NCBI GenBank assembly: GCA_001776775.1
Contig: MFDD01000002.1
Span: forward strand, 37,746-101,745
Direction of reading: 5' to 3'
Length of the DNA: 64,000 nt
Source of the DNA: Candidatus Daviesbacteria bacterium RIFCSPHIGHO2_02_FULL_43_12
Lineage (GTDB): Bacteria; Patescibacteriota; Microgenomatia; Daviesbacterales; UBA10151
The notes below the pieces were generated by a model. The model ran no database searches and was not told where the DNA came from. It saw nothing but the letters and a program-made list of their open reading frames with translations. Shown here piece after piece: positions 2,731 through 50,703 of this stretch. The position numbers and the translations under genes are program-made. Each line of letters opens with the position of its first letter. Position 1 is the stretch's first letter.

Positions 2731-3276
2731 CTAAGTCTTTTTTCTTGCACCATAAATGCCGAAAAATATACTCATAACTGCGGTAGAAAAACCTATTCTA
2801 AATAAAAAACTTTCCATTGATTCAAAGGGCACAATTAAACCCCCTGGGACACTTGCTATAACAGCAACACTAGCCCCTCTTAGAACTGGGTTATGATATA
2901 TACCTGAACCTATGCGTTGGGCTAAAGTCGGTGGCCTTAGTAAACTCAATTCCCTTTGATGTCTTAATGCATCAAGATATTTTTGAGTAGTATCCTCTGA
3001 TAATTGACCTAAATGTACTCTGCTTTCTAATAATTTTAATGTTCTATTCAAAGCTTGAGTTGAATGACCTAAATCTTGTGGCTGGGTGGGTGCAACGGGG
3101 GTCTTAACTGCTTTTATTATATCAGTTAATCCATCCATATCTTCGCTAAACTGAGGTAATGCGGCCAAACTGGCAAGAACACCGGCTGCTTTTTGCTCGG
3201 TCGAATAAGGCTGGAGGGGATTTCTTATGTTTTTAGGTAATCGTCTGATTCTTTTTAAAATTTCTGACATAAACAA
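2731..3276 (-). CDS. Hypothetical protein with C-terminal hydrophobic anchor
   Basis: 181-aa ORF with a C-terminal TM-like segment. No recognised motif. Confidence 0.4.
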   Translation of the reverse strand: MFMSEILKRIRRLPKNIRNPLQPYSTEQKAAGVLASLAALPQFSEDMDGLTDIIKAVKTPVAPTQPQDLGHSTQALNRTLKLLESRVHLGQLSEDTTQKYLDALRHQRELSLLRPPTLAQRIGSGIYHNPVLRGASVAVIASVPGGLIVPFESMESFLFRIGFSTAVMSIFFGIYGARKKT

Positions 3277-48084: not shown

Positions 48085-48114
48085 TTGACAGGTTCGGGTT
48101 TGCTTTGGTATATT
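48085..48114 (+). promoter_or_regulatory. Candidate lexA promoter TTGACA-N18-TATATT
   Basis: Consensus -35 and an A/T -10 hexamer. Flanked by direct repeats TTGGTATATTG. Confidence 0.35.
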
Positions 48115-48766
48115 GGATAAAGTTCACCTTGCAAATACCAATAAATATATGCCTGTCACACTATACCGCCGACAAAAACAAATACTCGATTTTATCAAGC
48201 AATATATCGGTAAATATGGCTATTCTCCAACTCTCGGAGAGATTGCCGAGAGCATTGGGGTATCTTCCCTTGCTACAGTTCATGAACACCTCCAAGCTCT
48301 GATCACCAAAGGACTAATCAAAAAATTTGAGGGGGCGGTCCGCGGAATTGAACTGCTGGATCAGAAGATCTCCGATAGACTGAGAGATATTGAACTACCT
48401 GTGCTGGGATTCATTGCGGCCGGACAACCGATCATGGCTTATACCGACCCGGATGCAACTATTTCCGTATCTCCACATCTGCTCTCCGGCAAAAAAAGAT
48501 CTTATGTTCTCCAGGTCAAGGGAGAGTCGATGATCGAAGATGGAATTTTAGACGGAGACTATGTGGTAATTGAAGAACAAAATACGGCTGTCGATGGAGA
48601 TATTGTAGTAGCTCTACTAGATAATGGACTGGCGACCTTAAAGAGATTTTATAAAGAGTTAAATAGAATTCGTTTGGAACCCGCTAATTCGAAGATGCAA
48701 CCGATCTATGCTACTGACGTCCAGATTCAGGGTAAATGTGTGGCGGTGATTAGGCGCTTCGGCTGA
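48113..48766 (+). CDS. lexA: LexA repressor (S24 peptidase)
   Basis: N-terminal wHTH. Cleavage and catalytic region GESMIEDGILDGDYVVIE. The ORF begins at TTG 48113; the ATG at 48149 (MPVTLYRRQKQIL) aligns best with LexA N-termini. Confidence 0.85.
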   Translation: MDKVHLANTNKYMPVTLYRRQKQILDFIKQYIGKYGYSPTLGEIAESIGVSSLATVHEHLQALITKGLIKKFEGAVRGIELLDQKISDRLRDIELPVLGFIAAGQPIMAYTDPDATISVSPHLLSGKKRSYVLQVKGESMIEDGILDGDYVVIEEQNTAVDGDIVVALLDNGLATLKRFYKELNRIRLEPANSKMQPIYATDVQIQGKCVAVIRRFG

Positions 48767-48812
48767 TACAGACAAGTAACAAAGGCTTACTCTAGGAAAT
48801 TAAAATGCTCAT

Positions 48813-49265
48813 TCAAATTTTAATGTCTAAGTAGTGGGTCTTCTCATTAAAAGTCACGCTCTGAAACAGATTAAAGAAGCCATCTCTTCCTAGCAATGCT
48901 ATTCTTTGCTCAAAACAGAAATCTGCCGAAACCGTATACTCATTACTATCAATTTTCAGTTTCACCTGTTTGGGAAATGCTTTTACCTGAGCGGATCCAA
49001 TACCCCCTATTGTAATGAATTTGCTTTTCTTGAAGCTAATACCTATTGATTCTCCTATATCTGCTGGTAATAAGTTTCTATCTGAGCCTGAATCGACTAA
49101 TGCAAGAAACGGTCGCGAGTATCGATGGCCATATTTAATGGAAATCATCACTAACGGAAAGAACATTTCCCCAATTATCTCTTGTGTAAGCGGATCTTTC
49201 TTAGGTCGAACTTCGTAGGATATACTAAGATCTGTTTTTGCCATTTGGGGAGTAGAATTGATCAA
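48813..49265 (-). CDS. Retropepsin-like (clan AA) aspartyl protease
   Basis: Active-site LVDSGSD motif at the expected position. About 150 aa single domain. Confidence 0.6.
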   Translation of the reverse strand: MINSTPQMAKTDLSISYEVRPKKDPLTQEIIGEMFFPLVMISIKYGHRYSRPFLALVDSGSDRNLLPADIGESIGISFKKSKFITIGGIGSAQVKAFPKQVKLKIDSNEYTVSADFCFEQRIALLGRDGFFNLFQSVTFNEKTHYLDIKI

Positions 49266-49464
49266 AGGGCATTATATATGACAATATGGCATCGTTTATC
49301 TTTTTTTTCTTAAGTTGATTGTCCACATCCTTATAGGATTTTCCCGATGCTATTACAGTAGATTTGTCCGGGGCTAGGGCCACCCACTTATTTTCATATG
49401 GTAAGAATATGTCTGATTTCATACTATAAGCATAGACTTTTTTCAAGATCCTGACAAGGTCCAT
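49225..49464 (-). CDS. Small hypothetical protein (79 aa) overlapping the protease gene start
   Basis: Co-oriented, with a 40-nt overlap with the protease ORF. Confidence 0.4.
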   Translation of the reverse strand: MDLVRILKKVYAYSMKSDIFLPYENKWVALAPDKSTVIASGKSYKDVDNQLKKKKINDAILSYIMPFDQFYSPNGKNRS

Positions 49465-49492
49465 TTTTAAATCGTAATACTATTACCAGGAT

Positions 49493-50002
49493 TTAGACGG
49501 CCTCACTTCTCGGTACTGATGTTCCCCCCCAGATGGTGTTGAAAATCTCGTCAGGGTCTCGATTTGGCGAGATATCCTCTAGTGCTGGATCTAAACGAGC
49601 TCCGCTCAGGCAATGTCGTCTGACTATTTGACGTAACTCATCTCTACCACCAACAAAGCCATTTCTCATCCACCAAAAGTACTGGGGAAGTGTTAGGTCT
49701 ACTAGCAGCTCTTTCCAATCTATGACTGCTCGAAGATAGGTATGATCAAAGCCCGGCTGGTTACTCTCTACTTCCTGAAGATGATAGCCAAAGGGAACCA
49801 TTAGCAGAGCCGTTTCTCGACCAATCTTCGCGCATCGGCCAGCTAAGTGCCCAGGCTTAAGCGAAGGATCTACTCTGGCCGGATAGATCGACATTCTACC
49901 TCGGAAATTGCGTAAGTTAGGATTAAACTCACCAAAATGCCTTTTTAATATATGCTCTAAGCTTAGCTTAAAATGAGGTATGGAGTTGGTAAAAGTTTCC
50001 AT
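49493..50002 (-). CDS. Hypothetical protein (169 aa)
   Basis: First gene of the three-gene minus-strand module. No recognised motif. Confidence 0.4.
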   Translation of the reverse strand: METFTNSIPHFKLSLEHILKRHFGEFNPNLRNFRGRMSIYPARVDPSLKPGHLAGRCAKIGRETALLMVPFGYHLQEVESNQPGFDHTYLRAVIDWKELLVDLTLPQYFWWMRNGFVGGRDELRQIVRRHCLSGARLDPALEDISPNRDPDEIFNTIWGGTSVPRSEAV

Positions 50003-50082
50003 AAAGCAGATTGTACTATAAGCACTACTTAGGCTAGAGCACTTGACCTGAGCTCCTTTAACCGGTTACACTAAAGTCTCTG

Positions 50083-50703
50083 ATGTCTTTTGACCTGCAA
50101 AGCCTATTAACAGGCGACCTAAAATCTATTATCGAAGCAGTAGGATATATGGGGGTATTCCTGATGGTTTTTGCTGAGTCCGGTATGTTACTCGGGTTTT
50201 TTCTACCGGGAGACAGCCTACTTTTTACTGCAGGATTCCTGGCTTCGACTGGAATCTTTGATATCACCTTTTTAACAATTGGCTGCTTTGTCGCAGCAGT
50301 TGCCGGAGATACCGGAGGATATTATATTGGCCGAAAGTTTGGGAAAAGATTATACGCCAGAGAGAACTCTAAATTATTCAAGAAAGAACACTTGGTCCAG
50401 GCTCAAAAATTCTACGAAAAACATGGCGGAAAAACGATCATTCTAGCCAGATTCGTGCCTGTTATTCGGGCCTTTGCTCCAGTAGTGGCTGGTATGGCAG
50501 ATATGAAATATTCTACCTTTATTTCATATAATATAATCGGGGGGTTACTTTGGGCTATTGGACTAACCCTGACCGGCTACTTTTTGGGTTCCCTTATTCC
50601 TAACGTAGATAAATATCTGCTACCCATCATCGGAGCAATTGTGCTCGTTTCCATAGTCCCTGGGCTGATTCATATTATCAAAGAGAAAAAGAAAACCTCC
50701 TAA
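50083..50703 (+). CDS. DedA-family (VTT/SNARE-associated) membrane protein
   Basis: FFLPGDSLLFTAGFLA signature plus G-rich re-entrant region. Confidence 0.8.
   Translation: MSFDLQSLLTGDLKSIIEAVGYMGVFLMVFAESGMLLGFFLPGDSLLFTAGFLASTGIFDITFLTIGCFVAAVAGDTGGYYIGRKFGKRLYARENSKLFKKEHLVQAQKFYEKHGGKTIILARFVPVIRAFAPVVAGMADMKYSTFISYNIIGGLLWAIGLTLTGYFLGSLIPNVDKYLLPIIGAIVLVSIVPGLIHIIKEKKKTS

Follow-up and report, generated by a model that had tools for sequence, protein, structure and literature searches.

We describe here a conserved operon of two overlapping genes in a 64,000-nucleotide stretch of the genome of Candidatus Daviesbacteria bacterium RIFCSPHIGHO2_02_FULL_43_12 (contig MFDD01000002.1, positions 37,746 to 101,745 of the forward strand). 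This whole stretch is called the window below, and coordinates are those of the window unless another locus is named. The first gene of the operon encodes a 65-residue protein of the DUF5678 type, and the second a 143-residue protein that appears from its sequence signature to be a free-standing retropepsin-like aspartic protease. A first-pass annotation of this DNA had grouped both genes with an upstream gene for a 169-residue protein into a three-gene module, and had suggested that the protease and its small neighbor form a processing or toxin-activation pair. We find that the unit is a self-contained operon of two genes rather than three. For its function we tentatively favor a toxin-antitoxin-like arrangement in which the small protein would restrain the protease.

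A conserved two-gene operon

The pairing of the two genes is seen from either side. A genome scan anchored on the protease, with one genome per species, gave 20 loci, and nine further contigs were reached through individual protease homologues. In every one of them (20/20 and 9/9, together 29/29) a DUF5678-like open reading frame (ORF) of 58–76 amino acids lies directly upstream of the protease. A metagenome scan anchored on the small gene, for which the closer subset of the small-protein alignment served as query, kept 80 loci. Of these, 74 have at least 430 nucleotides of downstream sequence, and the protease follows directly in 71 of the 74. Overall, the genes are paired in 96–100% of about 100 independent loci, and the partnership first suggested at this single locus is thus upheld by gene neighborhoods from both directions. 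No third gene family recurs around the pair in the loci examined.

The junction between the genes is compact. Spacing ranges from -44 to +5 nucleotides at 82 of 83 scored junctions, most often -4 (20 loci), -1 (17 loci) or -8 (12 loci), and the one exception is +136. In the window the two genes overlap by 20 nucleotides (49225–49244, minus strand), and this overlap, along with overlapping junctions at most other loci, bears out the earlier proposal of translational coupling. The relative reading frame varies, with overlaps of 1, 4, 8, 11, 13 and 20 nucleotides and gaps of 0–5 nucleotides, and no fused homologue was found; we therefore rejected a programmed frameshift or read-through fusion in the style of retroviral Gag-Pro. 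Over 72 unique pairs, loci with more similar proteases also tend to have more similar small proteins (correlation of pairwise identities r=0.68, Mantel p<=0.001). A small upstream gene that is coupled to a downstream effector gene and inherited with it as a unit is the bicistronic arrangement of type II toxin-antitoxin systems, and this arrangement is present here.

Three co-oriented ORFs can be read on the minus strand, as originally reported, at 48813–49265 (150 amino acids), 49225–49464 (79 amino acids) and 49493–50002 (169 amino acids), and family hidden Markov models match the three at E=2e-56, 1e-30 and 5e-46. However, the lengths first given for the two downstream products are probably too great. 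Protease homologues (n=65) are 141–143 amino acids long and begin at residues that correspond to 'MAKTDLS'; those of the small protein measure 59–68 amino acids and start 8–12 residues ahead of a conserved YxNKW motif. The mechanically called ORFs therefore begin too far upstream. Judged by these homologues, the true start of the protease gene is most likely ATG 49244 rather than TTG 49265 (gene 48813–49244, minus strand; 143 amino acids; stop codon 48815–48813), and that of the small gene is most likely ATG 49422 (gene 49225–49422, minus strand; 65 amino acids; stop codon TAG 49227–49225). With these starts the overlap of 40 nucleotides initially reported stands as an overlap and shrinks to 20 nucleotides; counted from the mechanical TTG it is 41. 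Candidatus Daviesbacteria bacterium RIFCSPHIGHO2_01_FULL_44_29 has proteins identical to the 79-residue and 169-residue products of the window.

A weak promoter-like site, TTGTCA-17-TATGCT (49429–49457, minus strand), ends 7 nucleotides before ATG 49422. Three promoter-like sites were found in the region against 3.6 expected by chance, and this one is suggestive only by its position.

The protease

The downstream protein carries the sequence hallmarks of a retropepsin. The published definition calls for an active-site signature of two hydrophobic residues followed by Asp-Thr/Ser-Gly-Ser/Thr/Ala and for a hydrophobic-hydrophobic-Gly motif in the psi loop (PMC4140852). The window protein has the first as L49-V50-D51-S52-G53-S54 (49083–49100, minus strand; catalytic Asp codon 49094–49092) and the second as L117-L118-G119, within the motif L117-L118-G119-R120-D121 (48882–48896, minus strand), where the hydrophobic-hydrophobic-Gly element leads into G-R-D. 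A flap-like motif, G81-I82-G83 (48996–49004, minus strand), lies between them and aligns with the G-V-G flap region of Ddi1 in a profile alignment against the Protein Data Bank (PDB). The DSGS motif noticed at first is thus real, and together with the GIG and LLGRD motifs and the profile matches given below it supports the initial identification of this gene product as retropepsin-like.

Across the protease family alignment of 56 members, D51, S52 and G53 are invariant, as are the GIG motif and L118, G119 and R120, and L117 is at least 90% conserved. Among intact proteases adjoining a small gene, D-S-G is present in every motif variant listed, and these variants cover at least 80 of the 87 sequences. 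The members share only about 35% identity, and that all three motifs stay invariant at this distance implies that purifying selection maintains the active site. The conserved catalytic motifs argue for an active enzyme.

Matches to curated families are weak for single sequences and consistent for the family. The window protease scores 19.1 bits against Asp_protease_2 (gathering score 24.3) and 15.8 bits against RVP (gathering score 20.7), whereas 34 and 25 of the 56 family members, respectively, match these Pfam models. The nearest curated prokaryotic family is TIGR03698, which is weakly matched by 30 of the 56 members (best E=4.3e-5). The window protease itself matches no NCBIfam model, and TIGR03698 is not matched at E<=1. 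In the PDB, the family profile is matched by the retropepsin domain of Ddi1 (2i1a, E=4.7e-4) and by the protease of EIAV (1fmb, E=8.6e-4). Individual members thus seem mostly too divergent for curated thresholds, and the assignment appears consistent at the family level; by its sequence signature the protease belongs to the retropepsin-like proteins of clan AA, nearest to the TIGR03698 group and Ddi1-type domains. Two features are particular to the family: a conserved N-terminal extension of about 45 residues (F-x-Y-x-P-x-P...), and the sequence DRNL downstream of the DSGS or DSGA motif.

The 143-residue chain contains one catalytic Asp, in a single DSG, so that if active the enzyme should be a homodimer, as is established for retropepsins. 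Neither protein of the pair has a hydrophobic N-terminus or a membrane segment (GRAVY -0.65 and -0.07), which suggests that the protease acts in the cytoplasm.

The small protein

The upstream gene is a genuine coding gene, as was assumed at the outset: it has 72 unique homologues, in which Trp13 is invariant, and 20 of 24 family members match DUF5678 (best E=4.9e-7). The window protein itself falls slightly below the gathering score of PF18929 (21.7 bits, E=1.8e-4; gathering score 23.2), and precomputed PF18929 matches exist on three of its relatives (P0067–P0069). On these matches the small protein is best described as representing a divergent DUF5678 subfamily.

An AlphaFold2 model built from a five-sequence alignment predicts a compact ββαβ core (strands at residues 12–16, 23–27 and 46–50, and a helix at 30–40) that reaches pLDDT values over 90. 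Confidence is low for the last 15 residues, which are predicted to have no fixed structure on their own. This tail includes the conserved motif P52-F-D-Q-F-Y-S-P59 (49246–49269, minus strand), for which the consensus is V-x-P-F-D/N-x-x-Y/F/L-S/A-P. It is about as conserved as the core in the 72 unique homologues, with the first Pro retained in 64, Phe in 61, Tyr, Phe or Leu in 70, Ser or Ala in 54 and the final Pro in 64. Conservation equal to that of the core in a segment predicted to be disordered alone is typical of a linear motif that binds a partner, and we propose PFDxxYSP as a candidate protease-contacting motif. The sequence profile of the small protein has no match in the PDB, and no fold match to a DNA-binding protein was obtained.

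Distribution and genomic contexts

The 20 genome loci are all of Microgenomates type and come from Daviesbacteria, Curtissbacteria, Woesebacteria and Shapirobacteria. Seven loci (L003, L004, L005, L007, L010, L013 and L014) carry the cassette in metagenome-assembled genomes titled 'uncultured Gammaproteobacteria bacterium'. One of them, L014, is syntenic with the window, sharing, in this order, genes for DUF192 and PEP-utilising proteins, rsmI, dedA, the pair and lexA, and its LexA is 84% identical to that of the window, so the Gammaproteobacteria labels look wrong.

The pair lies between lexA and dedA, as first annotated, and domain matches support both neighbors. LexA is encoded at 48113–48766 (plus strand; Peptidase_S24 E=1e-29, LexA_DNA_bind E=1e-17) and a DedA/VTT protein at 50083–50703 (plus strand; E=5e-21). 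In three Daviesbacteria genomes, lexA and the protease gene point toward each other (48113–49244 in the window, 4953–5994 in L014, and L001/L111), and in L014 the 3' ends of the two genes overlap by 8 nucleotides. A DedA/VTT gene is found near the pair in four loci (the window, L014, L001 and L026).

Of nine annotated contexts, four have genes for restriction-modification, PIN/MazE, AbiEii, Fic or IS200-type transposase proteins within 4 kb of the pair. At L027 (4007–6180), Y1_Tnp (IS200/IS605-type) transposase genes stand on both sides of it; this locus is also the only one with a long spacer between the small gene and the protease (136 nucleotides).

The small gene also occurs without its partner. 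Solo copies are present at L032 and, two of them, in L098/L099. The latter island (L098, 1250–3439; also L099) has solo DUF5678-like genes at 1250–1447 and 2968–3153, interleaved with two HicB/HicA-like pairs that are followed by a tyrosine-recombinase-like gene fragment; the protease is absent. At further loci an intact small gene adjoins a protease that is frameshifted, truncated or internally deleted (L004, 4977–5423; L020; L048; L050; L065; L092/L093). Such disrupted copies make up about 8 of about 100 loci, and they could be genuine pseudogenes or assembly errors. No protease without a small gene was seen among the loci examined, a comparison that is confounded by the way the loci were sampled.

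Possible functions of the pair

Our preferred reading, which we put somewhat short of an even chance, is that the pair is toxin-antitoxin-like: a cytoplasmic, homodimeric aspartic protease would be under the control of a stoichiometric partner, perhaps by way of that partner's tail. The DUF5678-type protein is encoded first, and coupled translation would keep it in step with the protease. The single-lobe protease would have to homodimerize to build its active site, as retropepsin biology suggests, and the small protein would bind it and keep it inactive. Two modes of inhibition can be envisaged. The unstructured tail, V-x-P-F-D/N-x-x-Y/F-S/A-P, might be laid in the substrate cleft as a pseudo-substrate, or the small protein might cap the dimer interface at the terminal strands that build it. 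Were the partner lost or turned over, a broad-specificity protease would be set free inside the cell. Homodimerization and catalysis are expected here by analogy with retropepsins, and we infer the physical interaction, the inhibitory direction and the toxic or defensive outcome.

An unrestrained retropepsin in the cytoplasm should be harmful, and control of the protease at the protein level by a co-translated partner is therefore the simplest reading. Expression of HIV protease is toxic to E. coli. Three aspects of the distribution lean toward the same logic: small genes persist alone or beside broken proteases, with the converse unseen; solo DUF5678 genes sit among HicAB pairs beside an integrase fragment at L098; and four of the nine annotated contexts include the restriction-modification, toxin-antitoxin-type, Fic or transposase genes named above. 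The kinship of the protease with the B genes of the two-gene phage-defense candidates PDC-M08 and PDC-M52, described below, also speaks for it.

Several observations weigh against this reading. The pair holds the same place beside lexA in three Daviesbacteria genomes, a stable synteny that looks like vertical inheritance and not like a mobile addiction module. Its identity in syntenic loci (40–49%) is similar to that of the flanking DUF192 and PEP-utilising genes (about 40%), and the idea that the pair evolves faster than its neighbors was dropped on this comparison. Five of the nine annotated contexts are ordinary housekeeping surroundings. No phage, plasmid or viral-contig copy was found by tblastn against phages and plasmids or in a viral contig scan, and an origin from such elements was rejected with these searches empty. 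The way in which loci were sampled, and possibly errors of assembly, confound the asymmetric decay of the two genes. No match to a known toxin-antitoxin family or a validated defense family was obtained for either protein, and the small protein does not match the A gene of PDC-M08. Palindromic operators are not enriched upstream of the pair (best arm 5.51, against 5.25 in shuffled sequences), so canonical type II autoregulation is unsupported. The small protein also lacks the character of a type II antitoxin that binds DNA and autoregulates through an operator; a canonical DNA-binding antitoxin was rejected for want of both a fold match and palindrome enrichment.

A more ambitious version of the toxin-antitoxin-like reading is that the pair founds a class of toxin-antitoxin or abortive-infection systems, in which a retropepsin effector is held by a DUF5678 pseudo-substrate tail and which is kin to PDC-M08 and PDC-M52. 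These are PADLOC phage-defense candidates that were nominated through their embedding in known defense systems (Payne et al., bioRxiv 10.1101/2024.01.29.577857). We consider this version doubtful. The A models of PDC-M08 and PDC-M52 match none of 24 small proteins, and with gene A mismatched the pair is not a member of either candidate system and only its protease is a relative.

A processing pair is an unlikely but serious rival. In this case the small protein would be the protease's own substrate or precursor, with its tail clipped, for example before a conserved Pro, so as to yield a mature or freed product that serves cellular physiology and not conflict. Strict pairing and translational coupling suit an enzyme and its substrate equally well, and the locus is stably syntenic in Daviesbacteria. 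The tail is conserved and exposed, and it offers hydrophobic-Pro and aromatic-x-Pro junctions; retroviral proteases act on extended segments and often cut just ahead of a Pro. However, no recurrent gene for a modification enzyme, exporter or receptor lies nearby, and a signal peptide is missing from the small protein. That small genes occur alone or next to dead proteases suggests that their product is kept even where it is not processed, and a folded core of 50 residues exceeds the needs of a leader peptide. We rate as equally improbable that the small protein is an adaptor or activator, aiding folding or dimerization of the protease or delivering substrates to it in the manner of the Ddi1 ubiquitin-like domain or ClpS, in housekeeping or stress proteolysis.

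It is far less probable that the downstream protein is a dead or non-proteolytic binding module of retropepsin fold, or a decaying remnant without function: the window protein does fall below the Pfam gathering threshold (19.1 against 24.3 bits), and about 8 of about 100 loci have disrupted copies, but none of the three motifs of catalysis and structure varies among sequences that are only about 35% identical, which points to purifying selection on the active site.

The adjacent papain-fold gene

The gene upstream of the pair (49493–50002, minus strand) encodes a 169-residue protein with a predicted papain/transglutaminase fold and lies outside the conserved unit. The three-gene module of the first-pass annotation did not survive comparison with related loci. 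Searches of 20 related genome loci by tblastn gave no match to the 169-residue protein. In the syntenic locus L014 only 89 nucleotides separate dedA from the small gene, and both the 169-residue gene and the whole segment around it are absent. In the window, the gene is bracketed by two exact copies of an 11-nucleotide direct repeat, TGCTTATAGTA, spaced 592 nucleotides apart. One copy, on the downstream side (49422–49432, minus strand), directly adjoins the start codon of the small gene; the other, on the upstream side (50014–50024, minus strand), lies 11 nucleotides before the ATG of the 169-residue gene. We estimate that about 0.07 such repeats would be expected by chance in 741 nucleotides. 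From this arrangement the gene looks like a lineage-specific 592-bp insertion separate from the pair. The insertion seems to have duplicated promoter-proximal sequence of the pair, and the 592-bp segment contains neither a transposase gene nor terminal inverted repeats.

Joint action of the 169-residue protein with the small protein and the protease is thus hardly credible: the three genes point the same way and lie close together (gaps of 28–70 nucleotides), so that they may be co-transcribed in the window, and the 169-residue protein is itself papain-fold and toxin-like, but it is missing from all 20 related loci and from L014, no third family is a recurrent neighbor of the pair, its distant homologues have unrelated surroundings that lack the pair, and it lies within a repeat-bounded segment.

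The observation that the 169-residue gene is richer in G and C than its surroundings holds locally (GC content 0.461, against 0.372 for the pair). However, the window has a mean of 0.419 (standard deviation 0.040), and a GC content this high or higher is found in about 14% of its 510-nucleotide segments, so that the gene does not stand out as a compositional outlier. A GC anomaly was rejected, the value being within the normal range of the genome.

An exhaustive search of 1.8 billion representative proteins with the 169-residue sequence gave 33 matches at E<=1e-3, which are the protein itself and 32 distant homologues with 22–31% identity over the full length. Within this family Cys57 (49834–49832) and His87 (49744–49742) are invariant and Asp102 (49699–49697) is nearly so. 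Structure prediction, which had been suggested for this protein at the start, yielded a confident AlphaFold2 model (pLDDT 92.9) that places Cys57, His87 and Asp102 in a papain-like topology. The Cys lies at the N-terminus of a helix and the His and Asp on successive β-strands, as is characteristic of papain-fold Cys-His-Asp enzymes of the SseI and Pasteurella toxin type. The Pfam family Tox-PLDMTX is matched by 2 of the 32 relatives (E=0.0017), whereas the window protein matches no Pfam model, including this one. In structure the protein is closest to Salmonella SseI and the C3 domain of the Pasteurella multocida toxin. It differs from them in standing alone, without a secretion or delivery domain, and its identity to solved structures is 12–15%. 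Candidate activities are those of a deamidase, transglutaminase, acyltransferase or peptidase. By its homologues, conserved residues and model, this is a real gene of a sparse, unannotated family with a predicted papain fold and a Cys-His-Asp triad. A stand-alone toxin-like enzyme in a genome of the candidate phyla may merit study in itself.

Novelty and implications

A literature search returned no description of a DUF5678 gene paired with a retropepsin-like protease, and for DUF5678 itself only an unrelated mention. The literature on retropepsin-like proteases and antitoxins yielded no link between the two, except for small retropepsin-domain proteins that accompany some archaeal type III CRISPR loci. 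We regard the pair as a two-gene cassette of an effector and its cognate partner whose effector class had not previously been seen in such a role; the association is very solid, and the function is proposed from it.

Free-standing bacterial retropepsin-like proteases are almost unstudied, and the operon defines a clean unit among them: a protease with all the catalytic sequence hallmarks that was never met without a specific partner of about 60 residues in the loci examined. The corrected gene model has two genes, with the neighboring gene recognized as encoding a distinct protein that has a papain fold and a Cys-His-Asp triad. With an inhibitor as partner, the pair would represent a new way of controlling or weaponizing an aspartic protease in cells, would give DUF5678 a role and would shed light on PDC-M08 and PDC-M52. 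Should the protease prove to be a toxin, it would be the first aspartic-protease toxin, with the first assigned DUF5678 function, resident in ultra-small bacteria of the candidate phyla. If the partner is instead a substrate or adaptor, the pair would offer a minimal prokaryotic model of retropepsin regulation.

Comparison with known systems

The window protease shares its single-lobe size, the D-S/T-G-S/A signature, the GIG motif and the LLG(R/D) motif with retropepsins and the RVP domain of Ddi1 (MEROPS clan AA, families A2 and A28). However, those domains are parts of polyproteins or multidomain proteins, whereas the window protease is free-standing, bacterial, apparently cytoplasmic and always found behind a DUF5678 gene. 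The proteins of TIGR03698 (clan_AA_DTGF) are, like the window protease, small prokaryotic retropepsin-like proteins; the window family is marked by DSGS or DSGA followed by DRNL.

The experimentally characterized example of a bacterial retropepsin-like protease is APRc (RC1339) of Rickettsia conorii, which demonstrates that single-lobe enzymes can be active in bacteria and which its authors present as the first experimental evidence of such an enzyme in prokaryotes (PMC4140852). APRc and the window protease share the same signature motifs and the expectation of an obligate homodimer. They differ in that APRc resides in the membrane, undergoes autoprocessing and has surface autotransporters as its targets, while the window protease lacks a membrane segment and comes with a small partner gene of its own.

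PDC-M08 and PDC-M52 are, like the window pair, two-gene cassettes with a small retropepsin-like B gene; the supplements of the paper that nominated them give no more than family numbers for the two (bioRxiv 10.1101/2024.01.29.577857). Their B models are matched weakly by 36 (PDC-M08) and 19 (PDC-M52) of the 56 protease family members, with a best E-value of 6.7e-8 and a value of 3.2e-5 for the window protein.

The window pair resembles type II toxin-antitoxin systems in having a small upstream gene that overlaps the effector gene, no third component, varied genomic contexts and co-inheritance of the two genes. Solo antitoxin-like copies within toxin-antitoxin islands likewise occur for the small gene. 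In contrast, the small protein has no recognizable DNA-binding fold and no operator-like palindrome accompanies it, and we know of no type II toxin that is an aspartic protease.

In the transframe region of HIV-1 (p6*/TFP), a sequence encoded directly upstream of the retropepsin restrains the protease by way of a short terminal peptide placed in the active site. The inhibitor in HIV-1 is covalently fused to the protease and removed by autoprocessing, whereas the window pair, with varying relative frames and no fusion or frameshift signal, would achieve a comparable restraint, if the analogy holds, with two separate polypeptides.

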